Positions 22,646 through 58,241 of a DNA stretch of 64,000 bases are shown here, piece by piece. Below the pieces are notes generated by a model. The model was given only the letters and a program-made list of their open reading frames with translations. It was not told the origin of the DNA and did not search any database. The position numbers and the translations under genes were made by a program. The stretch is from a virus (taxonomy: Duplodnaviria > Caudoviricetes): positions 30,790 through 94,789 of the IMG/VR virus record IMGVR_UViG_2744054895_000001; one strand, given 5' to 3'. Positions within the stretch are counted from its first letter, which is position 1; each line of letters begins with the position of its first letter.

Positions 22646-24196
22646 TTATGAGGATTCGGTGACCGTCGCGCCACCGTCGTACTGGCTGATGTGGATTGCG
22701 ACGTACTCGGCCGGCCGCGCCACAGCAATGCCCACGTCGATGTGGACCTCTCCGTTGTCGACGGTGGTCGCGGTGTTGTTGGTGTCGTCACAGATCACCT
22801 GGAACGCGGTGTCGGGCGTCGAGCTGGCGAACATCCCCGCCTGCGCCTGGGTGGTGAGCTGCTGGCTGAGGGTGGCCGAGATGGAGTGCCACAGCTCGGG
22901 GGTGTTGGGTGCGAACACCGCGCTGCGGGTGAGGTCCACGAGGATCTTGCGGGTGTACGTGAGCAGCCGGCGGACGGCGACGTACCGGTCTGGGTAGCCC
23001 GACTTCAAGGTCCTGGCGCCCATGATGCAGATGCCCGCCTGGGGGATCTGCCTGATGATGTTGATACCCCACGCGTTGAGGTTGTCGAGCTGAGAGTTCG
23101 TGAACCGCAGCTCGGTGGAGTAAACCCCGACGAGACGGCTGAGCGTGCCTGCCGCCGACTGGTGTGGGCCGTAGAGCGTGTCGGTCTGGGCGAACCTGCC
23201 GAGCACTGCACCACCGGGCGGCAGAGTGCGGGTGGCACCAGCGGCGATGGAGGACGGGTCTGCGGACACCAGCCACGGACCGTAGACGGCTGCGTAGGAG
23301 CTGGCCTTCAGTGGCGGCGGGCTGGTGCTGGAGTTGGCAGCCGGCGAGAGCTTGGCGTAGGCGGTGACGGCGGAAGGCACGTCCAATGACGGCGTCTGTG
23401 GTGCGTCGACTACGACGAAGGCGTATCCGTAGTCCTCCGCCCAGGTGATGACGGCGTTGAGGATGGAAGTGTCGGTGACGCCCGGCAGGTTGATATTGAC
23501 GATCTCACCTGTTGATTCGAGCTGCTTGGTCGCGGCGACCAGGTCGGGGGTGGCGCTGCCGTCGATGCCGCCAGTCAGGGGCGTACCGGTCTGCACGGCG
23601 GGCGTGATCGGTGTGCTCCATGCGTCGGTGGCGATGTAGTCGGCTTTGACGAATGCCGAGCCGTTGACTGGGGAGTTGATCATCGCGACCAGGTTCCGGG
23701 AGTCCGCCGGGTCGAGGCTGACGTCGTTGTATCGGTCGGCGATGTAGGTGTCCGTGGTCCCGCCGACCTTGACAGCCAGGTTGAAGCGGCCGGCACCTGT
23801 GTTGGCGTCGGTGACGTCGATGTAGACCTTGTTGCCGAACGCGCCGGCTGCCCTGGCCGTGAGGGTCAGGAGGGGCTCGGGGGTGGCCTGGCGGTCGTTG
23901 AGGGTGACCGCCGCGGCGACCGAGTCGGCAGGTACGGCACGGCAGATGTACGCCTTGCCGCCGCCGTTGGAGAAGTAGGAGTACACCGCGTAAGGCAGCA
24001 GGTCTGTGCCGGTTCCCCAGCCGCCGTAGACGAGGTTGAACTGCGACCAGGAGGTGATCAGCGTGGGCACGGCCGGACCGAAGTTGTGGGCGCCGACGAA
24101 CGCTGCGATGGCCTCGCCGGGGTTGGCGGTGACCGGGTTGGAGATCGCATCCAGTGTCTCGTCCACGTAGATGCCGGGGCGCAGGAAAGTCGCCAT
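22646..24196 (-). CDS. Contractile tail sheath protein
   Basis: FLRPGIYVDE, GPAVPTLITSW, YFSNGGGKAYI, YAAVYGPW, GARTL, YVAVRR, IAVARPAEY. Confidence 0.95.
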   Translation of the reverse strand: MATFLRPGIYVDETLDAISNPVTANPGEAIAAFVGAHNFGPAVPTLITSWSQFNLVYGGWGTGTDLLPYAVYSYFSNGGGKAYICRAVPADSVAAAVTLNDRQATPEPLLTLTARAAGAFGNKVYIDVTDANTGAGRFNLAVKVGGTTDTYIADRYNDVSLDPADSRNLVAMINSPVNGSAFVKADYIATDAWSTPITPAVQTGTPLTGGIDGSATPDLVAATKQLESTGEIVNINLPGVTDTSILNAVITWAEDYGYAFVVVDAPQTPSLDVPSAVTAYAKLSPAANSSTSPPPLKASSYAAVYGPWLVSADPSSIAAGATRTLPPGGAVLGRFAQTDTLYGPHQSAAGTLSRLVGVYSTELRFTNSQLDNLNAWGINIIRQIPQAGICIMGARTLKSGYPDRYVAVRRLLTYTRKILVDLTRSAVFAPNTPELWHSISATLSQQLTTQAQAGMFASSTPDTAFQVICDDTNNTATTVDNGEVHIDVGIAVARPAEYVAIHISQYDGGATVTESS

Positions 24197-32811: not shown

Positions 32812-33600
32812 TTAACCGAACATACCCTGACGCGCCGCGTTGCCAGCGGCCGGCAGGAGCTGGCCGCGGAGCTTGGCGTACTCGGACATGGGCATGTTCT
32901 TGATGTCGCCAGCGGAATACTGGCGGTAGCCGGCGTTCGTGTCGGCGGGACCGACGCCGTAACCGGTGGGAGCGGTGCCGCGCATCGAGGCCCGCGCAGC
33001 GACCTGGGTCTGCTGGATCTGGGCGACGATGGCAGCGCTCTTCTGCTTCATCAGCTCGACGCTGGCGCGCAGCTCGTCCTCGGTGTTGCCCTGGACGAGG
33101 TCGACCAGCTCGGGGGCGATGTCGTCGGCGGCCTGCGAGAGCAGTTCACCGCGGACGTTCTGGAGGCGCGTGTACTCCTGCTCGCGCGAGAACAACTCGC
33201 GGTCGGCCTCGTACTTGGACTGGAGGTCGGTGAAGCGACGCTCCCACTCCTCTTCGCGCTCCTTGAGCAGGCTCTTGGCGGACAGTTCCGCCTGTCGCTT
33301 CGCCTCTGCCTCATCCTCGGCCTGCTTGCGGGCGGTTGCCTCCGCGGCTTCCTTCTCCTCGCGGGCCTTGCGGACGGCTTCCAGCTCTTCCTTGGTGGCC
33401 TTCAGGATCTCGTCCTGCTGGTTGAGGCGGCCGTAGAGCTTCTCGCGCTCCTCACGCCGGACCCTCTCCAGGTCCTCGGCGCTGAAGCGACCTTCAGCCT
33501 GCGGATCCTTCGGCTCCTCGGGGACGACCGGCACGGTGATGACCTGGTCGTTCGGGACGTCGTTGGGGGCAGGGGCGGTGGCGGTGGTCGGAACAGTCAT
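32812..33600 (-). CDS. Capsid scaffolding protein
   Basis: Glu/Lys-rich coiled coil; C-terminal IKNMPMSEYAKLR; between portal and capsid. Confidence 0.8.
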   Translation of the reverse strand: MTVPTTATAPAPNDVPNDQVITVPVVPEEPKDPQAEGRFSAEDLERVRREEREKLYGRLNQQDEILKATKEELEAVRKAREEKEAAEATARKQAEDEAEAKRQAELSAKSLLKEREEEWERRFTDLQSKYEADRELFSREQEYTRLQNVRGELLSQAADDIAPELVDLVQGNTEDELRASVELMKQKSAAIVAQIQQTQVAARASMRGTAPTGYGVGPADTNAGYRQYSAGDIKNMPMSEYAKLRGQLLPAAGNAARQGMFG

Positions 33601-35333
33601 TAGCGCGTCTCCTGGTTACTGGCATCCTCCGAATTCCGGCTCTGCGGCAGCTTTGTGCCGTACGCCATGGTCACGAATTGGTCGATCAACGATTTGGTGT
33701 CCACACCGAGGTCGATCCCGGTTGCTCCGGGAAGAACTCCGGTCTGAGCATTGCCTGCGGGAGAGCCGGGCTGATCCGGGTTTCTCCCGCTTGACGGGGC
33801 TGGGTTGCCACTTTCCTCAGTAGCAATTCCAGTCATCTGGAGAATAGCAGAGGAAATGGTTGCTTTGATAAGCTCCAGGGCGCCCTGCTCGATAACGTCC
33901 CTGCGCTGCTCGCTGAACATCTCTTCCAGGCGCTCGTCGGGGAATTCCTCACCGAGTTCGACGAGGGCGTTCCGCTTGGACTCCAGGCCGATGGCGAGTT
34001 TGGCTTGGATTTCGTTGAGCTTGACCAGGTTGTCGACGGGCAGCGGCATCGGCCAGACGCATTCGACCTGATAGACCTCGGGGTCGTTGGGGTCGAGGAG
34101 GTCGGGCTGGTCGTCCGCGGTCTTGATGCCGTCGGTGTACGGGTCGTACAGCAGCGTCTCGGGCTCGTGGCAGAACAGGGTTCGCAGCACCAGCTCGTTG
34201 ATGCGCCGCAGACCGAGCCCGTAGTTCATCTGCTTGATGCTGTTGCGGTTCATCAGCGGCTGGTACTGGATGGACAGGGCGACGCCGCTGGTGTTGGAGA
34301 TCGGTTGCATCTGTCCGAGCGCCGGCTCGGGGACGCCCATGATCTCGTGCATGGCGGTCTTGAGGACCTGGATGTAGCCCATCGGGCCCTGCAAGTCCAC
34401 GCCGTTCTCAAGGTTGTAGACCTTGGCCTTCTCCGGCAGGCCGCCCCAGATCTTCCGCGGGCCGCGTTCCAGGTTGGTGGCTTTGGCGCCTTGGATGATC
34501 GTGGTGGGAGAGGCGTGGTAGTTGATGATGTCCGAGACGTCGGTCATCTTCTCGTTCAGCTCGCGGTTGATCGAGATGATGTCGCCGATATCGGCCAGGC
34601 CCCACGGGGAGCCGGACACGGCTATGTTCCGGATGTGGGCGACAGGAATCATGCCAAGTGGGTTAGGCCGGGAGTCGATCAGCTCGTCATTGAGAAACTC
34701 TTCGATGTGAGTGTCGGTAATGACCTCGGTGTAGGTCATTACCATGCGTGCCCCGTCTGCGCCGGTCGTCCAGAATTTGTAGCGGAGCTTGAAGGTGACC
34801 AGTCTATCCCTGTCGTGTGGGTGGTATTCCGGGAAGCAGTGCGCGGCGTTCAGGGGGAGGATGCGTACGCGGCCCGGATGGACGCCCCCCGCCGAGTCGC
34901 TCCACTGCGGCTCGTAAGCCACTTTCACAAAGGAGTCGCCCGTGACGCCGCCCTGCTCCCCGATGGTGTTGAGCAGGGACTGCTTATCGTTGTCGACCTC
35001 CCACACCCGCTTCAACAGGGCCGGCACGATGTGTTCGTACCGCTTGGGGACAGCGAACTTCACACCCTTGGAGAAGCAGAAGTTGTTGATGTAGCGAGCG
35101 AACGTCGCCACGTAGTTCAGGGTGATCTGCGGTTCGCCGGCTTCGCGTCGATAGGCCCAGTGGTGTCCCAGGTAGAACGCGAAGTTGGTCGCGTAGCGGT
35201 TCAGCCTGGGGCCGTGGACCTCGAAGTCCTCGTCGCTCAGCTCCACTAGGCCCAGGGGGCTGATGGAGATGGTGAGGTCCGAGCCGGCCGCGCGCTGATT
35301 CGGCGGGAAGAAGGCGAAGGACAACCGACACAT
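33600..35333 (-). CDS. Portal protein (SPP1 gp6-like)
   Basis: FYLGHHW, TGDSFVKV, NPLGMIPVAHIRN, SNTSGVALSIQYQPL. Confidence 0.85.
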   Translation of the reverse strand: MCRLSFAFFPPNQRAAGSDLTISISPLGLVELSDEDFEVHGPRLNRYATNFAFYLGHHWAYRREAGEPQITLNYVATFARYINNFCFSKGVKFAVPKRYEHIVPALLKRVWEVDNDKQSLLNTIGEQGGVTGDSFVKVAYEPQWSDSAGGVHPGRVRILPLNAAHCFPEYHPHDRDRLVTFKLRYKFWTTGADGARMVMTYTEVITDTHIEEFLNDELIDSRPNPLGMIPVAHIRNIAVSGSPWGLADIGDIISINRELNEKMTDVSDIINYHASPTTIIQGAKATNLERGPRKIWGGLPEKAKVYNLENGVDLQGPMGYIQVLKTAMHEIMGVPEPALGQMQPISNTSGVALSIQYQPLMNRNSIKQMNYGLGLRRINELVLRTLFCHEPETLLYDPYTDGIKTADDQPDLLDPNDPEVYQVECVWPMPLPVDNLVKLNEIQAKLAIGLESKRNALVELGEEFPDERLEEMFSEQRRDVIEQGALELIKATISSAILQMTGIATEESGNPAPSSGRNPDQPGSPAGNAQTGVLPGATGIDLGVDTKSLIDQFVTMAYGTKLPQSRNSEDASNQETR

Positions 35334-35444
35334 CCTCGTCTAAGCACCGAATGGTGCACCTGTAGGGAGGCGCGGTGCTACGAATGGATGTGCCGAATTG
35401 CGCTATGCCAAATCCTCACATGGGGGCTGCTGGGAGTGTTAACG

Positions 35445-35476
35445 ACAAAGCCCCCCGGTTCCCCAGGGGGCTTTGT
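35445..35476 (-). terminator. Probable terminator hairpin
   Basis: ACAAAGCCCCC...GGGGGCTTTGT. Confidence 0.6.
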
Positions 35477-35488
35477 GCAGCGCGGTGG

Positions 35489-35887
35489 TCAGTCGCTGGT
35501 CTTGGCGTAGTTCGAGCGCTCCTGGTGCCGGCCGTCGCGTACGACCATCTCGAAGCGCTGCTCTGCCGCGTGGCCGGCGCCGTGGGCGAATCCGCCGAGG
35601 AATTCCGGCGCCTCCGGCCAGGCGGCGCTGCCCACGTGGGCTCGCTCGCGCATGGTCTCGGCCGCGGGCTTCTCGAACACGTTCTTGTTGTGGTTGTTCC
35701 TGCCGGGTGCGGTCTGGTAGCCCTGCATTACGCCCTTCCCGAATTCCTGCGGGATGTCGGTGTCGGTGGCGATTCCCTCTTCGAAGCGGAGGCGGCCTCG
35801 GCGGGCGGTGTTGTGGCCATTCTTGACACCGTAGTCGTAGTGACCCTTCTCCTGGAAATGGGGGTCCGGGGCCAGGTTTCCTGCCAT
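35489..35887 (-). CDS. hypothetical phage protein
   Basis: GAGGA RBS, phage-like codon usage. Confidence 0.65.
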   Translation of the reverse strand: MAGNLAPDPHFQEKGHYDYGVKNGHNTARRGRLRFEEGIATDTDIPQEFGKGVMQGYQTAPGRNNHNKNVFEKPAAETMRERAHVGSAAWPEAPEFLGGFAHGAGHAAEQRFEMVVRDGRHQERSNYAKTSD

Positions 35888-36265
35888 GCTTCCTCAATTC
35901 CTTGCGAGACGTCTCAGATCAAGAGTGAGGGGCACTTCAGAAAAAGTGTTATAAGTGCGGCAACCCGCCCCCCTCGCGAGGGCAGATGCTGGGCCGGTCT
36001 GTGTTACGACCAGCCACTCGACCAAGAGCACCTGGTCGTCGCGTTCGATCGCGAGCATGGAGTCATTGAGGGGCCCACAGGGTGGTCGCTGTAGGCATCC
36101 AGCACTCGGCGTACTGGGACGGCTCGCAGCCAGCTCGGCGGCCCGAGTCACACACCGCGGCCAGTCACCCTTTCGAGGGCGCAACCGCCCACCGGAGGAG
36201 CGCTCCTCGGCCTAGACTCTGGGGCCATCCCGCTCCACATAACCCGGCGAATGGATCAACTCCGC

Positions 36266-36949
36266 ATGGCTCAGGTCACCCGACGAGGCGGCAGCAGCTC
36301 CCGCATCAAGAACCCCTCCGCCCCGAACGTCTCACCCACCCTGCGACTGGCCGAAATGCCAGGAGATGGTCTTGATGACGATGCGACCGTCAAGGGGGTC
36401 CGATTCGACGGCACCCACTTCAACGGCCTTGAGGTGGAGGCAGCCGAAGCGGAGGGCTGCGCCTTCGAGAACCTGCGCTTCACGGGCACGAGGCTGCGCA
36501 GAAGCCAATTTAGCAACTGCACCTTCGACACCTGTGATTTCGCCGAGGTAGCAGCCCACGATGTGTCACTGATCCGCTGCACGGTTGCTGGGAGCCGCAT
36601 CACGGGCTCGTCCTGGAGCCATGGAACGTTCCGCGACGTGCGCTTCGAGGGGTGCGTCAGCGCGCCCGCGATGTACCGACATTCGAAGCTCTACAGCGTC
36701 GTCTTCTCTGAGTGTCGGATGCAGGGGTCAGACTTCCAGTCGTCCCACATGCACAACGTGCTCTTTCGGGGCTGTGACCTGACCGGTTCGCAGTGGGCCA
36801 ACTGCCAGGTGGGCACCGTGCGGTTCGAGGACTGCACGCTCATTGATGTCGGTGGCGCCGCAAGCCTCAAGGGCGCCACAGTGCAAGGCCCAGGGTCGAT
36901 GGAGCTGGCCCTGAGCCTTGCACGAGAAGCGGGGATCTTGTTCGAGTAG
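36266..36949 (+). CDS. Pentapeptide repeat protein (Qnr/MfpA/McbG-like)
   Basis: Continuous (S/C/V)xFxx pentapeptide repeats, e.g. SQFSN CTFDT CDFAE, VRFED CTLID. Confidence 0.88.
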   Translation: MAQVTRRGGSSSRIKNPSAPNVSPTLRLAEMPGDGLDDDATVKGVRFDGTHFNGLEVEAAEAEGCAFENLRFTGTRLRRSQFSNCTFDTCDFAEVAAHDVSLIRCTVAGSRITGSSWSHGTFRDVRFEGCVSAPAMYRHSKLYSVVFSECRMQGSDFQSSHMHNVLFRGCDLTGSQWANCQVGTVRFEDCTLIDVGGAASLKGATVQGPGSMELALSLAREAGILFE

Positions 36950-36954
36950 CCGCG

Positions 36955-37824
36955 TCAGGCGGCGATGGCCGGCTTGTAGCCGGCGTACTCCGGGCCGGAG
37001 ATGCACCGGGTGACGTGGTCGAAGTCCAGCGGATCGCCCTCGGCCCACTCGGACATCTCATCGAGCAACATTCGGCCGTACGGGGTGAAGGTGCTGCGGT
37101 GCGTCCGCATGTCACGGCATGCGGCGCGAAGCGAAACCGTGTACTTGGAGACCAGGGTGTCTACGCCGCGACGGTGCTGCATGTACATCAGCGGCACGGC
37201 CACCGCCGCGGCGTGGAAGGCTGCGTGCAGCGGGCGCCTCTGACCGATCTTGACGGCGGACAGCGCGCGGTACTCGTCCTTCTCCATCTCGCTGGGCGGC
37301 AGAGTGAACATGCCGTAGACCATGTCCATCAGGAAGAGAGCCGTGTGAAGGCCCTCGTGGACGATGCATTCGGCGTACTCGGGCACGTCCCAGTCGCCGG
37401 GGCTCATGACGACGAGGCCGGGCAGTCGGTTGGTGCTCCCGCCCCCGTCAGACCTGGAGTTGACGACCACGACGTCCGTTACGAGCAGATCGACCATCCG
37501 CGCAAGGTCCGGACTGAGGTGGTTGATGTGCTCCACAGCCTGTCGGACCATCGCGTCCCAGTGCTCGCGCGTGGGGTCGTCGGTGTGGGTGGCCTTGCCG
37601 AAGATGTGCTCGAAGATGCTCTCGGCCTGGCAGTACCTCGCCCACTGGCCGTCCTCGTAGGACAGAGCGATGCCCCCTCCCTCGGCCGATAAGGGCCGGA
37701 GCCCCGAGATCGCCTTACGGTAGGCCGGCCCCAGGGCAGGGGCGCCCTGGAGGTGCTGGCCGGTCTGGGCATGAGCGAGCCGGGCTACCGTCTCGCAGAG
37801 GTGTCCAAGGTTAAGGAAGTGCAC
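36955..37824 (-). CDS. aKG-HExxH-type peptide-modifying enzyme
   Basis: GGSTNRLPGLV, AECIVHEGLHTALFL, SAVKIGQRRPLHAAFHA; GTG start at 37824 after GGAAGGA. Confidence 0.78.
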   Translation of the reverse strand: MHFLNLGHLCETVARLAHAQTGQHLQGAPALGPAYRKAISGLRPLSAEGGGIALSYEDGQWARYCQAESIFEHIFGKATHTDDPTREHWDAMVRQAVEHINHLSPDLARMVDLLVTDVVVVNSRSDGGGSTNRLPGLVVMSPGDWDVPEYAECIVHEGLHTALFLMDMVYGMFTLPPSEMEKDEYRALSAVKIGQRRPLHAAFHAAAVAVPLMYMQHRRGVDTLVSKYTVSLRAACRDMRTHRSTFTPYGRMLLDEMSEWAEGDPLDFDHVTRCISGPEYAGYKPAIAA

Positions 37825-37909
37825 GTGTTTTCCTTCCTGGTGAGAGTGCGCCCGGAGCCGAATGGGCGGCTCCGGGCGCACTCAGGGCGTCAGAGGGGCT
37901 GGCAGACGA

Positions 37910-38095
37910 CTACGCGTCGCTGTCCGTCCAGCCGCCCATCATCTGCACGTGGGTCCCCTGCTGCGACTGCCCGACCCGCTGCCGGATGCCGGCCGCGAGG
38001 CTCGCCGGGTCGCTCTGGACGGCCGCCACGATGCCCGAGAGCACGTCGGTCGACGTACCCGTCACGGGCGGCGGCGGGGTGATGGTCGAACTCAT
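37910..38095 (-). CDS. Putative RiPP precursor peptide (61 aa)
   Basis: GGAGG RBS; MSSTITPPPPVTGTSTDVLSGIVAAVQSDPASLAAGIRQRVGQSQQGTHVQMMGGWTDSDA directly upstream of the HExxH gene. Confidence 0.68.
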   Translation of the reverse strand: MSSTITPPPPVTGTSTDVLSGIVAAVQSDPASLAAGIRQRVGQSQQGTHVQMMGGWTDSDA

Positions 38096-38447
38096 TGCGC
38101 CTCCTTCTTCTTCTGCTGCTTTTCGCGAATGAATCACGCACGTGAGCGAAGAGGTTTCAGATCACTTTCCCGAGACCGTTTCGCCACCAAAGAGATTACA
38201 GACGTGACGAGGCATCAGAAAGGCCACATCCATGATTCTTTGAATTGGAATATGCCACTCGTGAAGGTGTTGAAAAATGGCATGTCGAAGTTCCGGGAAG
38301 CCGAAATCGGCACCCGGTAAACTGTGGCAGCGACTTCCGGCCATTCAGCGAGCGCTGCTCAGATTCGACGCTGCCCGCCCTCCCCGTCAACGCTCCCATA
38401 ATCTTAAATTTGGGATGTAATTGACGGGAAGGACGAAGCCTAAAGCG

Positions 38448-38591
38448 TTACTTCTTCTTGCGAGCCTCCTTCTCTGCCTTACGACGCTCAGCGCGATTGC
38501 CGTTCGGGTCGGGCACCGCGTGCTTCTTCTTCTTTGCCGGACTGCCAACGACAGTGGGTCCCGCCGTTGACTTCGCCTTCTTGTATCCCAT
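38448..38591 (-). CDS. Small very basic protein (47 aa; not in ORF track)
   Basis: MGYKKAKSTAGPTVVGSPAKKKKHAVPDPNGNRAERRKAEKEARKKK*, purine-rich RBS. Confidence 0.55.
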   Translation of the reverse strand: MGYKKAKSTAGPTVVGSPAKKKKHAVPDPNGNRAERRKAEKEARKKK

Positions 38592-38711
38592 ATTTCTCTT
38601 TCCGTAGTGCCTTAACGAACCCCGAGCGCAACTGCCGAACGGGGCCTGATTCCCGGCCGACTGCCGCCGTCACACGTCAGTCGTGGGAAGCTTGAGCGAG
38701 GAGAGCTACCT

Positions 38712-39038
38712 TCACGGAATCCATTTGGGCCACCGACCTCCTGAGCAGACGAGGCAGGCGACCTTTCCTATGCCGATGCAGGTAAGGCAGTCCCCCCAGA
38801 ATCCGACGCAGTCCGGGCAGCGAACTTCGCCCCATCCCGCGCAGTATCCGCAGTACCAACGGCGGCCCTGAGCGTCCAGCCACGTCGGCTCAGACCTCTT
38901 TTGTCTCGGGCGCGGGCCTTCGCCCTTCGGTATCGGCACTGAGCGTGCCCCTCCTACTGAAAGCGGGAGCTGCGAATCAGTGTCCCGGGCGCGCTTCAGC
39001 CGGGGCGATACATTTGTGACCCTCTTGTGGGCATGCAA
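38712..39038 (-). CDS. Possible DnaJ-like CxxCxGxG zinc-finger protein (start unclear)
   Basis: CGYCAGWG, CPDCVG, CLTCIGIG, CLVCSGG. Confidence 0.45.
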   Translation of the reverse strand: MHAHKRVTNVSPRLKRARDTDSQLPLSVGGARSVPIPKGEGPRPRQKRSEPTWLDAQGRRWYCGYCAGWGEVRCPDCVGFWGDCLTCIGIGKVACLVCSGGRWPKWIP

Positions 39039-39405
39039 TCAATGCCAGTGATACATGCTTTCCGGAGTACGCCCGATAGTCGCACGCATAGCTGCGCCCG
39101 GCCGTGATACTCGCCGCCGCCACTTCGAGTATCACTGATGGTCCGATCTCCCAACTCCCCGGTGGATGTGAGTCCAGCGACTGAGTGAGCCACGCAGTTG
39201 CCTCGGCAGTGCCCGCAAAGGTGGCTTTCATCATCAAGACAGGTTTGTCCAGCCACGCGGATCGAACTAGCGGTGGCGTCTCAGAATTAGGGTCACGGCG
39301 TTGTTCTGGCGACGGCGTCTTATCGCCAAGCCAGAAGAAAGCGTGGTGGTGGGCAACGGCACCAAGGGCGTTACCTTCACCGGTCTCTCCACATCGTTGT
39401 TGCAC
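38977..39405 (-). CDS. hypothetical protein
   Basis: ORF, HHHAFFWLG..; start uncertain. Confidence 0.45.
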   Translation of the reverse strand: MQQRCGETGEGNALGAVAHHHAFFWLGDKTPSPEQRRDPNSETPPLVRSAWLDKPVLMMKATFAGTAEATAWLTQSLDSHPPGSWEIGPSVILEVAAASITAGRSYACDYRAYSGKHVSLALIACPQEGHKCIAPAEARPGH

Positions 39406-39507
39406 GGGCCCTCCTCACTTCCTGCTAGCGACCGACCCGGCTTTCCTGCGGTGGAACCCCCTCCAGCCGACGACTCACGGGTGCAGCCGGCTGGAGGGGA
39501 GCTTCTG

Positions 39508-40071
39508 TTAGCGGACCCGGGTGGAGATCTCCTGGCCTCGCGGCACCTGAGATGCAGTCGGAGAGGGCGTCTCTTGCCGAGCCGAGCTGAGGCGGCCGAT
39601 CTGCCAGCCACGAGTGATCAGGTGCGACCGGCTCCTGGCGTCCAGCACCGCCATCAGGGCGCGCTCCTCATCGGGCATGACGGTCTGACCGTTCGCCAAG
39701 CGCTGGAGAACGTAGTGCTGACGGGCGGTAATGATGACTTCGTCCCACTCGGCCGACTGCTCAGGCGGGTCGAGTTCGAGCAGCCTGTACGCCTCGTGCA
39801 CCATGGCCGCCCGGTCATCGCAGCCGAGCTTTCCCGACGCATGCATCAGGTGCTTCGTCACCGTGGCCACCATCACGTCCAGCTCTGCGGCAGCTTCTGC
39901 GGTGGTCATACCGCGCGCCATGAGCTGGAGGGAATCGCGCTCTCGGGAAGACAGCCGCGGACGGCCCGGTCCTCGCGTGGTCACAGAAAATCCTTCCGAT
40001 TCAACGTTCGAAGGCGTCATTGCTGAACGGCGTCGAAGCCGCATGTCCTCAGTGCGATGAGGGGCGGTCAT
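39508..40071 (-). CDS. LuxR-type HTH regulator
   Basis: LSSRERDSLQLMARGMTTAEAAAELDVMVATVTKHL..KLG..DRAAMVHEAYRL, plus a degenerate second repeat. Confidence 0.8.
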   Translation of the reverse strand: MTAPHRTEDMRLRRRSAMTPSNVESEGFSVTTRGPGRPRLSSRERDSLQLMARGMTTAEAAAELDVMVATVTKHLMHASGKLGCDDRAAMVHEAYRLLELDPPEQSAEWDEVIITARQHYVLQRLANGQTVMPDEERALMAVLDARSRSHLITRGWQIGRLSSARQETPSPTASQVPRGQEISTRVR

Positions 40072-40728
40072 CTAGGCCGCGGTCTGGAGGGAAAGCTCTT
40101 CCAGGTCCACGGCGGTGCAGCCGTGCAGGGTGACGACCATGCGAGCTGCGAGTGTCCACGGGTACCTCGGGTCCGTGTCCGCCACGTACGTGAGCGCGTC
40201 GTCGTTGTCCTCGGCGGGCAAGGGCTGGAGCGTTTCAGGGCAATACTCGATGCCAGCGATGCCCCACACCGGGTGGTACTCCACCAACGCCGCGGCTGCC
40301 CCCCGCCGCAGCTCCGGGCAGTCCCGCAAGGCTTCGCCCGCGCAGGCCTCGTGTACCGGTGGTGTTGCGCTCCGCTCACCTTCGGTGATCGGCTGTCCGC
40401 TCGGGGCGCGCACCAGGAAGAGGTGCCGTTCGTCAGACCGGCCGAAGGTGGACGTGCCGCAGACCTGGCACAGCATGTGAGTCATTGCCTGCCTCTGGCG
40501 CAGTGCGTGCACGCCAGCAAGCGACGGCTTGCCGATTCCAGGTGCGGCCGACTTCCGAACCCATAGCGCGTCGAGCCTGCGATCGAACCTGTCCTCGTCC
40601 GCGTAGGCGATACCCGGGCCCCATGGTCCGCGTCGCCGCACGATGATTCCGTGATGCGTCTGCTCGTCCGACCAGGGCGAAAGAAAGGGAACGTGAATCC
40701 CGTTCCAGAAGAACTGGCGACGACTCAT
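40072..40728 (-). CDS. Conserved actinobacterial mobile-element hypothetical protein
   Basis: VPFLSPWSDE..VHALRQRQAMTHMLCQVCG..PPVHEACA..CPEL. Confidence 0.65.
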   Translation of the reverse strand: MSRRQFFWNGIHVPFLSPWSDEQTHHGIIVRRRGPWGPGIAYADEDRFDRRLDALWVRKSAAPGIGKPSLAGVHALRQRQAMTHMLCQVCGTSTFGRSDERHLFLVRAPSGQPITEGERSATPPVHEACAGEALRDCPELRRGAAAALVEYHPVWGIAGIEYCPETLQPLPAEDNDDALTYVADTDPRYPWTLAARMVVTLHGCTAVDLEELSLQTAA

Positions 40729-40922
40729 GCGGCGACAACTTCCGGGGTCGGCCGGCACGGGTCGATGATGCTCCCGTCCGGCAGCAGCTCACCGGTGTCC
40801 TCGAAGAGCACGACGCCGTTGCACAGTAGGCTCCAGCCCTGCTCCGGGTGGTGCGCCACCAGGTGGGCGGCCTCTCGGTCTGGGGCGTCAGCCGATGGGC
40901 ACTCAGTCTTATGCTGGCACAT
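40725..40922 (-). CDS. DUF5999 family protein
   Basis: MCQHKTECPSADAPDREAA..HPEQGWSLLCNGVVLFEDTGELLPDG. Confidence 0.85.
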   Translation of the reverse strand: MCQHKTECPSADAPDREAAHLVAHHPEQGWSLLCNGVVLFEDTGELLPDGSIIDPCRPTPEVVAA

Positions 40923-40976
40923 CGTGTTGGTCCTTCGTCGTCAACGGATCAGTTCCGGCGTGGAGGCTCGCCCTCT

Positions 40977-41399
40977 TCAGGGAGGAGCTGAGTTCGCGTG
41001 TCGCCCGTAGCAGGGGTGGGCTCGCTGGCGGTGGCTTTGCCGCTCAGGGACGATCGAGACGGAATAGCGGACCAAGTAGTTGTCCCAGCCGCCAAAATTC
41101 ACGCGGCGGCCGACGCGGAGATTCGTCTCAACCAGCCAGGCAGCATCGGGGTGTTGAGCCCACTCTTTGACGCGACGGACGATGTCTCCGTCCAGCATCG
41201 ACACGAAGAGCTCAAGGCGATCGATGAACCAGACGGTTGCCGCCTCCGAGTCCCCGGTTGCGAAGTGGCCCATCCAGTACATCGGCGTGATGCAGGAAGA
41301 AGAATCGGCCCGATGCTCGACCACCGCGAGACACTCGCAGCGGAAGATGACACCTGGAAAGTCGCCTGTCGCCTGGGGCTGAGGTTCCAGCGCTAGCAC
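40977..41399 (-). CDS. hypothetical protein
   Basis: Overlaps end of the ATP-binding gene; operon position. Confidence 0.5.
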   Translation of the reverse strand: MLALEPQPQATGDFPGVIFRCECLAVVEHRADSSSCITPMYWMGHFATGDSEAATVWFIDRLELFVSMLDGDIVRRVKEWAQHPDAAWLVETNLRVGRRVNFGGWDNYLVRYSVSIVPERQSHRQRAHPCYGRHANSAPP

Positions 41400-41839
41400 G
41401 CGGCGCTCCGTCCTCCACGGGTGCCCGGAGGGGCCAGGAAAGCGGAGACGATCTTCCCGTCAGCAAGTCGACGGACATGCCACGTCGCGAACTGATTGAC
41501 TGCCACGACACCACGGCCCCGCTCCTGATCAGGTGTGGCGAAGCGTGCCTGAGGCATGTCCAGCGAATAGTCGCGGACCTGGATGTGCACGCCCGAGGGG
41601 CTGGCGAGGAGGACCACCTCGCAGCGACCGTCCGTGTGTCGGTGGACGTTGGTGAGCAGCTCTGTCGCCACCAGGCGGGCGTCGTCGACGAGCTCGCCCA
41701 AACCCCACAGTCCGAGCAGGGTGTCGACTACGCGGCGGAACTGGCCGGGAGTGCGCTCGGTCACCTGGTCTAAGCGGAGCGAGTAACGCTGCTCGGGTGA
41801 CCTGAGTGTCGTAACCGGTCGCACAGCCATGACATCCAT
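41393..41839 (-). CDS. HATPase_c (RsbW-like) ATP-binding regulatory protein
   Basis: LVATELLTNVHRH, IQVRD, ERGRG, GKIVSAFL; divergent from XRE gene. Confidence 0.85.
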   Translation of the reverse strand: MDVMAVRPVTTLRSPEQRYSLRLDQVTERTPGQFRRVVDTLLGLWGLGELVDDARLVATELLTNVHRHTDGRCEVVLLASPSGVHIQVRDYSLDMPQARFATPDQERGRGVVAVNQFATWHVRRLADGKIVSAFLAPPGTRGGRSAAC

Positions 41840-42076
41840 GGCTCCTCCAGAGTGGGCGCTGGGCACGCGTGGTGTAGCGCCTCGAACTCGCCGAAGCACC
41901 CTGCGTGTTTGGCCACCCAATGTTGCCCACGTCACTGACAGAAGGTCAAGCAGAAGATTGGCAATCTGCCAAACAAGTGTGCAGCAACGAGCTACCAGGC
42001 ACGATCGAACCGCCGTCCACCAAGAGGCTGCGATACCCTCGGCGGCACGGACACCGGCTCACAGGGGAGGGACTCG

Positions 42077-42949
42077 ATGGCGGCCGTCACCAGCAGCAGC
42101 CCGCTCAACGCGAGGCGCAAGCTGGGCACCGAACTGCGCCTCCTACGCGACCAAGCCGGTCTGACGACGGAGGACGTCGGCGCGCGGCTCAACTGTCACA
42201 ACTCCAAGATCAGCAGGATCGAGAACGGGAAGAGGACGTGCGGCCAGAAGGATTTCACCGCCTTCATGGAGCTGTATGAAGTCGACGAGCCCAAGCGCGC
42301 CGAGCTGGAAGACCTGGCCACACGCTCCAGGCAGCGAGTGCCACCGTGGTGGCACGCTTACAACGACGTGATCTCCGCCAATTACAGCGAATTCTTGGCC
42401 TACGAGGCCGATGCGGACCGCACCTGTGAGTACCAGCCGCTGCTGATCCCTGGGCTACTGCAAACGGCGGATTACGCACGGGCAGTGACGGGCGTCAGCT
42501 ACGCGGCGCTCGGCCCTGATCAAGTGGACAGCCTCGTCGAGGTTCGCATTCGTCGCCAAGACAGGCTCCGCGAAGAGGTCCCACTGCTCGTCGAGGCCGT
42601 CGTCACCGAGGCTGCCCTCCGCCTGCTGGTCGGCGGAACCGACGTGATGCGAGCCCAGCTCCGAAGCCTGGCTCAGGTCATTACGCTCGACCACGTCCGG
42701 TTCAAGATCATCCCCTTCAGCGCGGGTGAAAAGGGAGCCAGCACCGGAGCTTTCACGCTGTTCGCCACGGGGAAGGACACTGATGCGGATGTGGCCTTCA
42801 CGGAGTCCGCCGAGAACACCACCAGCTTCCGTGATGATCCCCTGGCGCTCCGGCGCCTGAACCGCCTGTTTACCAACTTGTCCGCTGCCGCGCTCTCGGA
42901 GCATGATAGCCGTGAGCTGCTTGAACGTATCGAGAAAGAGCTGGTCTGA
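42077..42949 (+). CDS. XRE HTH + DUF5753 regulator (WhiJ/Scr1-like)
   Basis: RRKLGTELRLLRDQAGLT..SKISRIENG; IPGLLQTADYARA; EAALR..VGG.DVMRAQL. Confidence 0.92.
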   Translation: MAAVTSSSPLNARRKLGTELRLLRDQAGLTTEDVGARLNCHNSKISRIENGKRTCGQKDFTAFMELYEVDEPKRAELEDLATRSRQRVPPWWHAYNDVISANYSEFLAYEADADRTCEYQPLLIPGLLQTADYARAVTGVSYAALGPDQVDSLVEVRIRRQDRLREEVPLLVEAVVTEAALRLLVGGTDVMRAQLRSLAQVITLDHVRFKIIPFSAGEKGASTGAFTLFATGKDTDADVAFTESAENTTSFRDDPLALRRLNRLFTNLSAAALSEHDSRELLERIEKELV

Positions 42950-42950
42950 A

Positions 42951-43178
42951 ATGGAAGATCTGGCCGCTGTGCACGCGGTGGACCTCACCGGGGTCGCGTG
43001 GCACAAGAGTTCATACACTGCGGGGAACGGCAACTGTGTAGAGGTAGCGGACGTGCCCGGTTTTCCGGCTACGGCCGTTCGCGACTCGAAGAACCCCGAG
43101 CTGCCGGCCGCAAGGGTCTCGACAGCGGCGTGGGCCACCTTTGTTACGGCTGTGGCGACCGGGACCCTCACAGCCTGA
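42951..43178 (+). CDS. DUF397 protein
   Basis: WHKSSYTAGNGNCVEVA..VRDSKNP..WATFV. Confidence 0.92.
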   Translation: MEDLAAVHAVDLTGVAWHKSSYTAGNGNCVEVADVPGFPATAVRDSKNPELPAARVSTAAWATFVTAVATGTLTA

Positions 43179-43411
43179 TGGCGGCAGATGCCCTGGCCAA
43201 GGCGGACTTGTATGCCCTGGATCTGTCTGAGGTGACATGGGTCAGCGCCCCAGGTGCCGACCCAGAGGACCGCCTGGAAGTTGCCCATCTCCCCAACGGT
43301 GCTGTGGCGCTGCGTAACCCTGCGGACCCCGACGGGACGGTGCTGCGCTACACCGCCGCAGAGTGGGAAGCGTTCGTCCTCGGCGTCCGGGACGGGGAGT
43401 TCAACGGGTAA
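43178..43411 (+). CDS. DUF397 protein (second, divergent type)
   Basis: LYALDLSEVTW..LEVA..VALRNP..LRYTAAEWEAFVLGVRDGEF. Confidence 0.85.
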   Translation: MAADALAKADLYALDLSEVTWVSAPGADPEDRLEVAHLPNGAVALRNPADPDGTVLRYTAAEWEAFVLGVRDGEFNG

Positions 43412-43423
43412 CACCAGCAGCGT

Positions 43424-43456
43424 CGAAGGCCCCCGAGCACCGCTCGGGGGCCTTCG
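43424..43456. terminator. Bidirectional terminator between convergent genes
   Basis: Perfect 15-bp stem CGAAGGCCCCCGAGC/GCTCGGGGGCCTTCG. Confidence 0.8.
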
Positions 43457-43467
43457 TATATTCGTTC

Positions 43468-43974
43468 TCAGAATCCGCCGAGCCGGGGGCTGATGGTGTA
43501 GATCCGCGGAGGCTGGATCGGCTTGTAGGCGGTGTCCACGACCAGGTCGTGGAGGCGGAGGGGGCCGGCGAGGTTGTAGGGCACGTTGATCATGAACTTG
43601 CCGCCTCCGGGGACGACCTCGTGCACGCTGTAGTGGAACGGCTCGTCCAGGTGGGGGTCGTCAGATGCGGGCAGGTCGGCCCTGAGAGCGCCGTTGGTGA
43701 CCTTGATGCGGCGGGCGTTGGGTACGACCAGGTCTCCTGTGGCCTTGTCGCGGTATCGCCGGTCGGCTTGGATCAGCACGCTGCCGGGCAGGGGGAGACC
43801 CCCTTCGACCATGTAAGTGGCTGTGACGGTCTGAACGGTGATGTCGGCGGGGAATGGTGCTGGCGGGCTGACGGCGGGGTAGCCGGGGCCTGCGAGCATG
43901 TTCTGCGCTGTCCAGCCGATGATGTTGTACGGGTCGTTCGGGTCGTAGCTGTGATAGTTGGGGTCGATCGTCAC
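43468..43974 (-). CDS. hypothetical phage protein
   Basis: GTG start after AAGGAG; follows terminase. Confidence 0.6.
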   Translation of the reverse strand: MTIDPNYHSYDPNDPYNIIGWTAQNMLAGPGYPAVSPPAPFPADITVQTVTATYMVEGGLPLPGSVLIQADRRYRDKATGDLVVPNARRIKVTNGALRADLPASDDPHLDEPFHYSVHEVVPGGGKFMINVPYNLAGPLRLHDLVVDTAYKPIQPPRIYTISPRLGGF

Positions 43975-43982
43975 GGGGCTCC

Positions 43983-45539
43983 TTACGCGGCCCTGGAGTA
44001 GAGGAAATTGCTTTCCTCCTGCACCTCGGGCATGGACAGGTCGGCGGTCATGTAGACGGCGTTGGCGAGGCTGTCGACGTAGTCGTCGTGGGCGCCGGCC
44101 TCTTCGGGGGCGTGGACGATGACGTTGGGGCCCTGGAAGTCCAGCTCGGCATCCTCCATCTGCGTACGGAACCGCTGGAAGGTCTTCAGACGCCGGACCT
44201 TGGAGTGCGCCGGCCAGGCGAGGTTGTCGGTCCGCATCAGCTCCATGAGGTGCTTCCACCGCTTGGACTGGGCGCCGCGGTCGGAGGGCAGATCGATGAT
44301 GTCGACGCCGGGCATGAGGACGCGCAGCCGGCTGGCGACGACGTCACCGATGCCGCCTGCGTCGATGCCAATGGCCAGGACGGCATAGTTCGCCAAGGCG
44401 TCGCAGATCCGGTAGTACTGCTCCTCCCATCCCAAGCCGGACAGGTCGAACCAGTTCAGGATCCTGTGCTGGTAGTTGCCGAACTCGTCCGGATGGTCCC
44501 AGTCCACCCAGACGATCGTGACGATGGTCGAGTCCTGTTTGCGGGCGGGGTCGATGCCGACGATGACTGGGGTGCGATGCCACGCGTGGACGATCTGCAT
44601 CGACCTGTCCCCCAGTTCCTCCATACGCTCCGAGGTGGTGAACATGCCTCGGTCGAGGAGCCACTGGAGTCTGTAGGAAAGGCGGAACTCGTCGCTGTCC
44701 TCACCGATGGTCAGCATTTCGCCGCGGATGTAGACGCCGTAGTCCGGGTGCGCCTTCGCGACGTCCTTCCACGTGGCCTCGAAGTGGTTCAGCCTGGCAC
44801 CGCGGTTGGTGGCACGCCGCTTGTTCTGCTGGATGATCTTGTAGAAGATGCCCTTGGTGTACGTGGGGGTCCCCGTCAAAATCATCGTTCCACGCGTACT
44901 CGCGAGCATCGGGCTGATCGACTTGTTGACGACCTTCTCGTCGGCGACCTGGGCCTCGTCGATCAGCACGACGTGGTAGGTACGGCCTTCGATCTGGGCC
45001 CGCGGGTGGCATGTCTGCTTCCGTACCAGGGAGCCGCACTTCACGAGCCTCAGTTCCTTCCCCTTGCCGACGACCTTCTCGTCGATCTCGGGGTCGGCCA
45101 TCAGTTCCAGGGCGCGCTCGGAGGTCAGCCGGCTGACGATGCGGCCGTAGAGGTTGTCCACCATGTCGTCGACCGGTGCGAAGGCCCCGAGCCAGACGCC
45201 CTCGCGGAAGCGGCCGAGCAGGCTGGGGAAGATCGGCGCCAGGCGCGGGAACATGATCAAGACGGCAGCGAGGGTGTTGGCGAGCGTCTCGCTCTTTCCG
45301 GACTGTCGCGCCCAGCAGGCGGTGATCTTGGCGGTGTCGCCCAGGATCAACGACTCCAGGATTCGCCGCGCGAGGGGCACCTGGTAGTCGCGGAGGGGGT
45401 GTCCAGACAGCTCGTCGATGACGAGAAGCATCTTCTCGATGATGCGGTCGACGGTTTCCTGGGAGATCTCGGGGTTGACAGGTAGCAGGGACTCCTCGTC
45501 GTCATCTATTCGATTTCCGTCTACAGCCGTCGATGCCAT
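43983..45539 (-). CDS. Terminase large subunit
   Basis: LRDYQ, ARQSGKS, LIDEAQ, LTGTP, VGIDPARKQDST, HDDYVDSLA. Confidence 0.93.
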   Translation of the reverse strand: MASTAVDGNRIDDDEESLLPVNPEISQETVDRIIEKMLLVIDELSGHPLRDYQVPLARRILESLILGDTAKITACWARQSGKSETLANTLAAVLIMFPRLAPIFPSLLGRFREGVWLGAFAPVDDMVDNLYGRIVSRLTSERALELMADPEIDEKVVGKGKELRLVKCGSLVRKQTCHPRAQIEGRTYHVVLIDEAQVADEKVVNKSISPMLASTRGTMILTGTPTYTKGIFYKIIQQNKRRATNRGARLNHFEATWKDVAKAHPDYGVYIRGEMLTIGEDSDEFRLSYRLQWLLDRGMFTTSERMEELGDRSMQIVHAWHRTPVIVGIDPARKQDSTIVTIVWVDWDHPDEFGNYQHRILNWFDLSGLGWEEQYYRICDALANYAVLAIGIDAGGIGDVVASRLRVLMPGVDIIDLPSDRGAQSKRWKHLMELMRTDNLAWPAHSKVRRLKTFQRFRTQMEDAELDFQGPNVIVHAPEEAGAHDDYVDSLANAVYMTADLSMPEVQEESNFLYSRAA

Positions 45540-50188: not shown

Positions 50189-51190
50189 TCAGACGGCGAC
50201 GAGTTCCGCGGTGGAAAGCACCTCGCGGAGGGCCTCGTCGACCAGGACCTCGACGGCTTCGTCCAGCGCTGCCTGTGCCTGACGGCGGGCGGCGATGGCA
50301 CGGAGCTGCTCATCGAGCGCGTAGCTCGGGCTGTGGTCGAGGTTGTTTCGTGCGCGGTCGTACCGGCGGGTGGTGCGCGGGTCCGCGTGACCGAGCAGGT
50401 CTTGGACGGCCTCCAGCGGCTTGCCGCTCTCCAGCGCGAGGGTGGCGCAGGTGTGGCGGAGGTCGTGGGTGCGGATCACGCGGATGCCGGCGCGACGGCA
50501 CAGGCGCTTGACCATGTCCCAGATGCCCTGCCGGGTGATGCGTCGGCCGGTGGAGGTGATGATCAGCGCTCCGCTGGTGCGGCCGGCAAGGTATGCCTCC
50601 AGGGCCGCCCAGGCACTCGGAGGAATGACGATGGTCTGCCGTCGGCCGCCCTTGCGGGTGATGCGCAGGATCTTGTGTCCGCGCTCTTCGCCCAGGTCCT
50701 CGATGTTGGCGTTGACCAACTCGCTGACCCGCATGCCGGTCAGCAGGAGCATGTGGGCGACGGCCGCGCACCGCAGGCTGTACGCCTCGGCGCCACGCAG
50801 CAGTTGCTCGGACTCCTCAAAGGTCAAGCCGGTGGCCTGGGAGATGTTCGAGACCGGTTGGCGCTTCACCAGGGCGGCCGGGTTCCGGAAGACGATGTCC
50901 TCCAGTTCTGGCTCGGCCATGGCGTACTTGAACAGGCCGCTGACGACGGAGAGGTGTCGGTTCACCGAACCGTTGCCGTAGTTCTCGACGAGCCACTCCT
51001 TGAAGGCGTCCATCTGGAGACGCTTCTGGTTGAACGGGTCGAGACCGTGCTCGGCGCACCAGGTGAGGTAGTGGCGCAGGTCGCGCTTGTACTCCTCGCG
51101 TGTGCGGCCGGACTTGGTCAGAAGGAAGGCTCCGGCGACAGCGATCGGCTGGATCTGGCCATCGCTCATCAGCACAAGCTGCGCGCTCAC
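50189..51190 (-). CDS. Tyrosine recombinase/integrase (XerC/D-like)
   Basis: TGMRVSEL, HDLRHTCAT, LLGHADPRTTRRY; N-terminal SAM-like domain. Confidence 0.93.
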   Translation of the reverse strand: MSAQLVLMSDGQIQPIAVAGAFLLTKSGRTREEYKRDLRHYLTWCAEHGLDPFNQKRLQMDAFKEWLVENYGNGSVNRHLSVVSGLFKYAMAEPELEDIVFRNPAALVKRQPVSNISQATGLTFEESEQLLRGAEAYSLRCAAVAHMLLLTGMRVSELVNANIEDLGEERGHKILRITRKGGRRQTIVIPPSAWAALEAYLAGRTSGALIITSTGRRITRQGIWDMVKRLCRRAGIRVIRTHDLRHTCATLALESGKPLEAVQDLLGHADPRTTRRYDRARNNLDHSPSYALDEQLRAIAARRQAQAALDEAVEVLVDEALREVLSTAELVAV

Positions 51191-57558: not shown

Positions 57559-57611
57559 AGCAGCGCTGCGGGTCAGGGGTGGTGCCCTGTCTGTGTCGAG
57601 AGGAGAGAGCA

Positions 57612-58139: not shown

Positions 58140-58140
58140 C

Positions 58141-58208: not shown

Positions 58209-58241
58209 AGGGGTGGTTCCCTGCCACGAGAGGAGAGAGCT

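Follow-up and report, generated by a model that had tools for sequence, protein, structure and literature searches.

Among described systems, the microcin B17 operon is one of the closest to the locus reported here. It combines a precursor (McbA), a maturase (McbBCD), and a pentapeptide-repeat protein (PRP; McbG) in one mobile locus, together with genes for export. The PRP of this operon protects DNA gyrase from the operon's product, as stated in excerpts of the published account (PMC6722960). We describe a three-gene cassette of about 1.8 kb, located between positions 36266 and 38095 of a 64,000-nucleotide stretch of viral DNA (positions 30,790 to 94,789 of the 94,789-base IMG/VR provirus record IMGVR_UViG_2744054895_000001; the whole stretch is referred to below as the window) and carried by a Streptomyces prophage. 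The cassette likewise encodes a 61-amino-acid (aa) precursor-like peptide, a modifying enzyme of the aKG-HExxH oxygenase family, and a PRP. Its genes are conserved together in three bacterial phyla, and it seems to represent a modified-peptide system not previously described. Whereas microcin B17 matures by azole formation within a Gly/Ser/Cys-rich core tract, the cassette encodes a predicted Fe(II)/2-oxoglutarate (2OG) oxygenase, and the core of its peptide consists of six invariant residues. Unlike the mcb operon, it has no conserved export genes, and gyrase is a predicted rather than an established target.

The cassette enzyme has its TIGR04267 domain, HExxH motif, and fold in common with the oxygenases ChlB (HExxH domain; PDB entry 8s5f), PflC and PosC, PesO, and BpmH. 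[quoted passage not shown] The cassette enzyme differs from these oxygenases in that it stands alone, without a radical SAM, MNIO, protease, or transporter partner, and neither a peptide family with an MMGGWT core nor a constant PRP partner features in any aKG-HExxH paper that we found. PRPs are listed in literature abstracts as self-resistance proteins beside topoisomerase inhibitors (microcin B17, albicidin, the pyxidicyclines, and speirobactin), and the same kind of source credits PRP-guided mining with the discovery of the pyxidicyclines and speirobactin. The enzyme family and the principle of PRP self-protection beside a topoisomerase inhibitor are already known. The precursor family, the constant pairing of an oxygenase with a PRP, and carriage by an actinophage are undescribed in the literature searched; outside that literature, the survey of stand-alone HExxH proteins by Morishita et al. 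(2024, Nat Chem) or the supplements of the van der Donk preprints could mention the subfamily. Among the literature matches listed for HExxH together with pentapeptide repeat, there was no relevant paper.

The three open reading frames (ORFs) of the cassette lie where an earlier annotation by a model that saw only the letters and their translations (here called the sequence-only reading) had placed them. The peptide gene (38095-37910, minus strand) carries an AAGGAGG ribosome-binding site (RBS) 5 nt upstream of its ATG and terminates with a stop codon at 37910-37912; the C terminus of the 61-aa product is HVQMMGGWTDSDA, and the end of the ORF is also given as ...GTHVQMMGGWTDSDA. The oxygenase gene follows on the same strand after a spacer of 85 nt. 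Its longest ORF (37881-36955) would encode 308 aa, but because all homologs of the protein start with MHFLN and a database protein of 289 aa (P0001) is identical to it, we assigned the start to the GTG at 37824, which is preceded by AGGAAGGA, and not to 37881 (gene at 37824-36955; 289 aa). The PRP gene (36266-36949, plus strand; 227 aa) converges on the oxygenase gene. An upstream ATG at 36251 is a possible start for the PRP, and Met 36266 is the one common to homologs. The two convergent genes end with stop codons separated by 5 nt, and the only terminator-like site near their junction falls within the end of the PRP gene, with no intrinsic terminator between the genes. A scan for promoters and terminators found no excess over shuffled sequence, with one promoter-like site against 0.7 expected and seven terminator-like sites against 4.6.

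The association of these genes was assessed in 64 loci, 59 from species-representative genomes and 5 from IMG/VR, which were collected with an alignment of 14 HExxH homologs as the seed. An ORF for an MMGGW peptide is present in 57 of the loci and, in 56, immediately precedes the matched enzyme gene in the same orientation. The peptide is missing from L047, L057, L059, and L060, which contain only fragments of the enzyme gene; in L015, the peptide gene and the first codons of the enzyme gene are gone, and in L024 and L063 the core is frameshifted. Because an ORF caller filtered by GC content at third codon positions missed many PRP genes (35/64 loci), PRP counts were taken from tblastn instead. 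By this measure, a PRP gene is present in 61 of the loci, tail to tail with the enzyme gene in 57 (with alignment gaps of mostly 6 to 30 nt) and co-directional with it in 4. It is missing from L036, from L037, whose contig ends 162 nt past the enzyme gene, and from L060. The complete trio occurs in 55 of the 64 loci. The proposal of the sequence-only reading that the three genes belong together was thus borne out by their neighborhoods in other genomes, both for the peptide next to HExxH homologs and for the linked PRP gene.

These loci come from Actinomycetota (Streptomyces, Streptantibioticus, Actinacidiphila, Kitasatospora, Nocardia, Actinomadura, Sphaerisporangium, and Pseudonocardia), two cyanobacteria, and two members of the Bacteroidota, and a Nocardia farcinica record in a plasmid collection also holds the full trio. 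In the cyanobacterial and Bacteroidota loci, all genes are on one strand in the order peptide, HExxH protein, PRP, and three of these four loci have a gene for a PhyH-type dioxygenase between the last two. Distribution within the family is patchy: the HExxH gene was found in 20 of 401 sampled genomes, as a single copy. When flanking ORFs were clustered, no other family occurred in more than 19 loci, and the recurrent neighbors were XRE/DUF5753 regulators (19 loci by clustering and 27 by tblastn), DUF6879 proteins (17 loci), and HATPase_c_2 proteins (9 loci). Protease and transporter families, which are common in RiPP loci without being obligatory, recur with the cassette in at most 4 of the 64 loci. 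As a separate observation, an Oscillatoria genome (L051, 550-1908) encodes, about 2 kb upstream of the cassette, a PmbA/TldD-family metallopeptidase; microcin B17 is processed by this family, but the gene was seen in one locus and may be a coincidence.

The peptide consists of a variable helical leader, the invariant core MMGGWT, and the tail DSDA. In an alignment of 34 homologous peptides (alignment A2), columns of the leader have a mean identity of 32%, while M52, M53, G54, G55, and W56 are invariant and are followed by Thr in at least 90% of the sequences. The core is usually found in the context N-x-(S/C)-MMGGWT, which broadens to N-x-(S/C/V/Q)-M-M-G-G-W-T overall and reads H-V-Q-MMGGWTD in the clade of the window. 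Searching 1.84 billion representative proteins with a profile of the peptide yielded 81 matches at an E value of ≤0.001, 4 of which are long proteins, and a word-indexed search gave 49 matches, every named one of which is called a hypothetical protein. MMGGW is present in 109 of the 110 proteins of fewer than 130 aa that were examined from these searches, the exception being a translated Bacillus phage ORF. About 40 of the small homologs stop exactly at ...MMGGWT and the others carry a tail, mostly of 1 to 13 residues; two small homologs contain the unit ...FFxEENRSMMGGWT twice. Variable or absent tails and a duplicated unit indicate that the tail is dispensable and that the core, with a short stretch upstream of it, behaves as a module. 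The codons for the core Gly (GGC, GGT, GGA, and GGG) and Thr (ACC, ACG, ACT, and ACA) vary synonymously among 30 distinct DNA versions, which indicates that the constraint is on the protein. With a short precursor gene beside a modifying enzyme, a variable leader, and a conserved core, the locus has the layout expected of a RiPP locus. The peptide matched no Pfam or NCBIfam model, and a comparison of all 34 peptides with NCBIfam produced scattered chance matches alone (best E value, 0.0024), each involving 1 of the 34 members; the string MMGGW was found in no paper of the searchable literature. This precursor family, so far a hypothetical protein wherever it has been seen, could receive a family model of its own.

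Assignment of the enzyme to the aKG-HExxH family, as proposed in the sequence-only reading, was confirmed by both profile and fold. The protein matches the NCBIfam model TIGR04267 (aKG-HExxH-type peptide beta-hydroxylase; IPR026337) over model positions 1 to 177 of 177 with a score of 71.5 bits, above the curated cut-off of 40 (72.2 bits in the genome search), and it has no Pfam match. The motifs HEGLH and RPLHAAFHA are both present. Most of its 119 homologs are from Streptomyces, and those in NCBI are named aKG-HExxH-type peptide beta-hydroxylase or HEXXH motif-containing putative peptide modification protein. Residues H156, E157, and H160 of the HExxH motif and the downstream R197, P198, and H204 are invariant among 14 aligned homologs and are predicted to include ligands of the metal or of 2OG. 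In a Foldseek search with an AlphaFold2 model of the enzyme (pLDDT, 90.9; pTM, 0.90), the top matches were four chains of 8s5f (E value, 1.2e-8 to 2.8e-8; probability, 1.00; TM score, 0.52 to 0.59), the crystal structure of the ChlB HExxH domain, described as "a novel alpha-ketoglutarate dependent oxygenase." These were followed by SjiH (22ob), and zincin peptidases appeared only at E values of >0.03. Identity to ChlB over the structural alignment is 16 to 18%, and the relation is visible by fold alone; a PDB profile search with the enzyme alignment returned two chance-level matches (E values of 0.67 and 0.74).

Two types of reaction are known for this enzyme family. In the accessible parts of the two reports cited above (PMC12636437 and PMC13060819), characterized members are described as beta-hydroxylating residues of RiPP precursors (His, Asp, Phe, Gln, and Pro), and PflC and PosC as oxidatively cleaving the backbone to remove a conserved C-terminal ARMD tail, leaving an amide; one of them calls the reactions of the family unpredictable at present (PMC13060819). 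The variable tail after MMGGWT makes oxidative tail trimming a live option for the cassette, and hydroxylation is the simpler guess for peptides that already end at Thr. The enzyme would be a compact experimental target, as an aKG-HExxH protein that has a conserved putative substrate of its own and whose conserved gene set includes no partner maturase.

Relatives of the enzyme outside the cassette were also seen. On the linear plasmid of Streptomyces sp. NBC_00690 (L067, 2781-5142), an HExxH protein with 37.5% identity is preceded by a 46-aa peptide with a similar leader (…VRTNVSAFLAEA…) and a different core (…STMGCGTE) and is followed by genes for radical SAM, dTMP kinase, EEP-family, and MazG-like proteins, with no PRP. 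As a single case, this sister locus ties the pair of leader and enzyme to classical RiPP machinery. A tblastn search with the enzyme matched 1 of 50,697 phage records, that of Bacillus phage SPbetaL1, at 25% identity. The distant, stand-alone HExxH protein in that phage (L066, 3654-4738; motifs HEFIH and RRPLDRSYHAS) is preceded by a 66-aa acidic peptide, with no MMGGW core and no PRP, and may represent another phage-borne pair of peptide and aKG-HExxH enzyme. The fold of the cassette enzyme had no matches among the viral structures of BFVD at an E value of ≤0.001, and neither the enzyme nor the peptide belongs to a PHROG.

The PRP matches the Pfam family Pentapeptide_4 with an E value of 5.6e-30. 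Its best sequence matches in the PDB are EfsQnr (2w7z; E value, 2.4e-14), AlbG (2xt4; 4.7e-12), QnrB1 (8e-11), and MfpA (2.7e-7), and in its AlphaFold2 model (pLDDT, 91.0) a right-handed beta-helix is followed by a C-terminal helix (residues 215 to 226). Foldseek placed EfsQnr first (2w7z; TM scores of 0.83/0.92; root mean square deviation of 2.0 Å over 214 columns; 25% identity), followed by AlbG, a Clostridium PRP, MfpA, and QnrB1. By sequence and by fold, the protein thus falls within the class of topoisomerase-interacting PRPs, with which it shares its size and the arrangement of beta-helix and C-terminal helix. The earlier comparison with gyrase-protecting PRPs held insofar as these are the nearest solved relatives; it did not extend to the named families, since the protein fails the Qnr and MfpA cut-offs, and it is Qnr-like in fold without being a Qnr or MfpA orthologue. 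It also differs from Qnr and MfpA in being paired with peptide and oxygenase genes and in an N-terminal extension of its own: the actinobacterial PRPs of the cassette share R-(I/V)-K-N-P-x-A-P-(K/R) at the N terminus and GPGxMELALSLAREAGI at the C terminus (alignment A3). A match to the NCBIfam model HalA, at 61.4 bits against a cut-off of 250, reflects repeat similarity only.

The three genes do not decay symmetrically. Six loci with a decayed peptide gene, enzyme gene, or both (L015, L024, L047, L057, L059, and L063) retain a full-length, stop-free PRP gene; L024 and L063 are near-identical, leaving five independent cases. Only one complete peptide-bearing locus lacks the PRP, that of a Sphaerisporangium (L036, 4001-7601), and there an MFS transporter gene stands in its place. 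In this locus, an intact enzyme gene is followed by the transporter gene, which faces a second copy of the enzyme gene beside the peptide gene; in the second copy, HExxH has become YExxH and the conserved Arg has become Ile, and it is upstream of this degenerate copy that the peptide gene lies. Retention of a protective gene after decay of the producer genes, like replacement of target protection by efflux, is typical of toxin/immunity systems, and the asymmetric decay fits a protective role of the PRP.

The spacer between the peptide and enzyme genes contains a GC-rich hairpin (37844-37883, minus strand) with a 16-bp stem and an 8-nt loop. The minimum free energy of the 85-nt spacer is -44.2 kcal/mol (z of about -5.2), and spacers of 80 to 116 nt with such a hairpin are found throughout the Streptomycetaceae loci and in a Nocardia locus (L056). 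RNAalifold analysis of 35 spacers predicted 12 pairs, each with at least one sequence showing a compensatory double change, and three of them with such changes in 10 to 14 sequences. When a loop closed by 10 or more uninterrupted pairs is required, the hairpin is counted in 39 of 56 spacers, a figure that is an undercount, as 10 further spacers have long stems with a bulge. The hairpin is absent from five loci with spacers of 12 to 31 nt, and two cyanobacterial spacers are long and different. Stem-loops between precursor and enzyme genes raise the level of the precursor transcript over that of the enzyme in lantibiotic and pqqA operons, and the spacer hairpin of the cassette is probably an attenuator or a stabilizer of the mRNA 3' end. 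Farther upstream, the regions preceding the peptide gene in 17 loci are of at least two unrelated types. An imperfect palindrome, TGGCATATTCCA, was noticed some 150 nt upstream from the peptide gene in the window (within 38096-38330) and in L002, L003, L008, and L065. In other loci, a different shared block (…GGGCGGGT…GCAAGTGCA…) immediately precedes the RBS; the palindrome and the block, both conserved, may be operators.

Taken together, these features suggest a self-contained, horizontally mobile cassette whose product is a peptide made by the ribosome and matured by oxidation. The hairpin would let the short precursor transcript outnumber that of the enzyme, and the Fe(II)/2OG HExxH oxygenase would recognize the peptide and oxidize its core, by beta-hydroxylation of a core residue and/or by oxidative removal of the variable tail, the likely chemistry given the reactions known for the family. 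The matured peptide would then act on an enzyme of DNA transactions, most plausibly DNA gyrase or topoisomerase IV, and the Qnr-like, DNA-mimic PRP would shield the carrier cell's own copy of that enzyme. As cargo of a temperate, contractile-tailed Streptomyces phage, the cassette could benefit the lysogen or the phage by killing noncarriers after release, by excluding other phages, or by addiction. The parts of this scheme differ in strength. In our judgment, it is highly probable that the oxygenase has the peptide as its substrate and that the PRP has a functional tie to the product. For the further step, in which the PRP would protect a topoisomerase, or some other DNA-binding target, against the matured peptide, we consider the case evenly poised. 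The constant PRP partner points to topoisomerases, and gyrase-directed peptide scaffolds are in demand.

Several points weigh against this scheme. The PRP scores well below the curated cut-offs for Qnr (NF033086; 51.6 against 240 bits) and MfpA (NF000349; 27.5 against 360 bits) and far below those of all Qnr subfamily models, and some PRPs have targets other than topoisomerases. In PADLOC 2.0, no family matched the peptide, the HExxH protein, or the PRP. The lack of a recurrent exporter or leader protease is unusual for a secreted antibiotic, and invariance of the core over three phyla is more in keeping with the precursors of cofactors or signals than with antibiotics. Finally, the pattern of orphan PRPs comes from six loci, two of them near-identical, and the substitution by an MFS transporter from a single case.

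Among the alternatives, the one that survives best keeps the peptide and its maturase and differs from a released peptide only in the site of action: the product would work inside the carrier as a conflict module of the mobile element, either as an addiction pair or in anti-phage defense or superinfection exclusion, rather than as an exported bacteriocin. Such a device would disturb the topoisomerase-dependent replication of incoming DNA. We regard it as possible, if on balance doubtful. No exporter or protease is conserved with the cassette, the cassette is found on prophages and in conjugative or insertion sequence (IS)-rich regions, and the tail-to-tail genes, with stops 5 nt apart and no intrinsic terminator between them, are as such a module might have them. 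Anti-phage RiPP clusters of Streptomyces are recorded in the accessible part of one preprint (bioRxiv 10.1101/2024.06.26.600839) and a coi cluster without a protease in that of another (10.64898/2026.08.26.747419). On the other side, the PADLOC comparison found none of the three proteins among known defense families, toxicity is a supposition, and the MFS transporter at the single PRP-less locus hints at export. The missing exporter and protease favor action inside the carrier or release by lysis, and the transporter of L036 favors export. A bolder version of intracellular action, in which the oxidized MMGGW(T) peptide is a new ribosomally made topoisomerase poison, the intracellular toxin of a "RiPP toxin/DNA-mimic antidote" pair that needs no export, strikes us as unlikely; if it were true, phages and conjugative elements in three phyla would be using a peptide-based module for addiction or superinfection exclusion.

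Alternatively, the PRP itself might be the effector, mimicking DNA so as to modulate gyrase or to counter a host defense, with the oxidized peptide as its regulator or ligand and not as a toxin. The DNA mimics Ocr and ArdA block host defenses, and the same phage carries an ArdA gene (59054-59617). The closest structures, EfsQnr and MfpA, are gyrase inhibitors or modulators according to the titles of their PDB entries, and the persistence of the PRP alone in six loci implies that it can be useful without the peptide. Its strict coinheritance with the peptide and the enzyme, in 55 of 64 loci and three phyla, speaks against an independent effector, and the MFS replacement in L036 fits poorly with a regulator-ligand pair; we therefore hold this reading to be very doubtful. 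Slimmer still is the chance that the peptide gives rise to a nontoxic product, such as a signal, a cofactor-like molecule made from the core, or a metal-binding peptide, with the PRP unrelated or serving as a scaffold. A Met-Met...Trp arrangement would resemble the Cu(I) sites of the CusF type, a hairpin of the kind seen in the spacer is also found at the precursor gene pqqA, the core is invariant over three phyla, and no exporter or protease is conserved with the cassette. A patchy, single-copy, mobile distribution (20 of 401 genomes) is nevertheless unsuited to a cofactor, no consumer enzyme is conserved nearby, and the tight linkage of the PRP and the orphan PRPs would go unexplained. Both of these readings account for the linkage or the decay pattern less well than a PRP that protects its carrier from the matured peptide. 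Chance juxtaposition of unrelated genes, or a small ORF that is noncoding, has a negligible probability, as chance is excluded by the conserved linkage in 55 of 64 loci and the small ORF has an RBS, an invariant motif with synonymous codon changes, and 81 matches at an E value of ≤0.001.

The description of the cassette as phage borne was upheld by its surroundings in the IMG/VR provirus. Pfam matches in the window reveal a structural module with a contractile sheath, tube, baseplate J, gp25, capsid, and SPP1-type portal, and the cassette lies inside this module, between the genes for the large terminase (43983-45539) and the portal (33600-35333); a tyrosine integrase is encoded at 50189-51265. 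An unnamed 132-aa ORF (orf132, 35489-35887) neighbors the portal gene, and between it and the terminase gene is an accessory ("moron") island of about 8.1 kb (35888-43982) that holds the cassette. The island also encodes a LuxR-type regulator (39508-40071), a phrog_30088 protein assigned by PHROGs (40072-40758), and, by Pfam, a HATPase_c_2 protein (41393-41935) and an XRE/DUF5753 regulator (42077-42949). Among the island neighbors scanned, none belonged to a radical SAM, protease, or transporter family, in agreement with the initial description of the locus. A further ORF of the island (38712-39038, minus strand), between the LuxR and peptide genes, has repeated CxxCxGxG-like motifs in a putative DnaJ-type zinc finger pattern. 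A megablast search of the island (35300-44000) against phage records gave no match.

Comparison with a related provirus (L065) suggests how the island arose. Its terminase, orf132 homolog, and portal are 64%, 55%, and 64% identical to those of the window, respectively, and the three genes are contiguous; in the window phage, the island has thus been inserted into the packaging block. The cassette of L065 lies about 3 kb beyond the integrase gene, on the other side of the terminase gene, indicating that it has also landed at another site in a related phage; L005 has the same arrangement. In a third prophage type (L019, L035, L062, and L064), the cassette is located between a gene for a large serine recombinase, accompanied by XRE and DUF6879 genes, and a gene for DNA polymerase A, and in L024 and L063 a serine recombinase gene stands beside it. 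The flanks of the loci in distant phyla include MobA/VirD2 and TraI/TrwC relaxases, a phage tail-collar protein, PIN/RHH pairs, IS605 OrfB, and a STAND NTPase. Hallmarks of mobile elements (terminase or integrase, serine recombinases, DNA polymerase A, relaxases, IS elements, and toxin-antitoxin genes) occur in at least 11 of the 64 loci, a lower bound set by the flanks that were screened family by family.

Modified-peptide loci on or against phages have been described before. Sublancin on SPbeta is likewise a case of a temperate phage with a modified-peptide locus able to benefit the lysogen, as far as the accessible part of the preprint goes (bioRxiv 10.1101/2020.10.01.322628); the present cassette differs in host phylum, in chemistry, and in its location between terminase and portal genes. 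The "lanthiphages" and lanthivirins are, like the cassette, actinobacterial RiPP loci for which a role in phage-bacterium conflict has been proposed, again from partial text of the preprints (bioRxiv 10.1101/2024.06.26.600839 and 10.64898/2026.08.26.747419). Lanthiphages are class I lanthipeptides in host defense islands, whereas the cassette combines an oxygenase with a PRP and is carried by a phage. The window phage is a rare clear case of an actinophage with a modified-peptide locus inside its packaging and structural block, and it bears on the question of how lysogens are armed or protected.

Other features of the window lie outside the island. A gene at 13296-14414 (minus strand) encodes a fusion of a poly-gamma-glutamate hydrolase domain to a gp25-like baseplate wedge domain, a candidate capsule depolymerase borne on the virion. 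A group I intron match over the full model length (22069-22321, minus strand; 68.5 bits; model positions 1 to 253 of 253) lies just downstream of the sheath gene (22646-24196). At the far end of the window, an array of self-cleaving ribozymes (57491-63346) occupies the gaps between consecutive plus-strand ORFs, ArdA being encoded by one of these ORFs. It is made up of two Pistol ribozymes (57491-57559 and 58141-58209, plus strand) and seven type II hammerhead ribozymes (plus strand, starting at 58962, 59623, 60146, 60948, 61603, 62528, and 63281), all of which score above the Rfam gathering thresholds.

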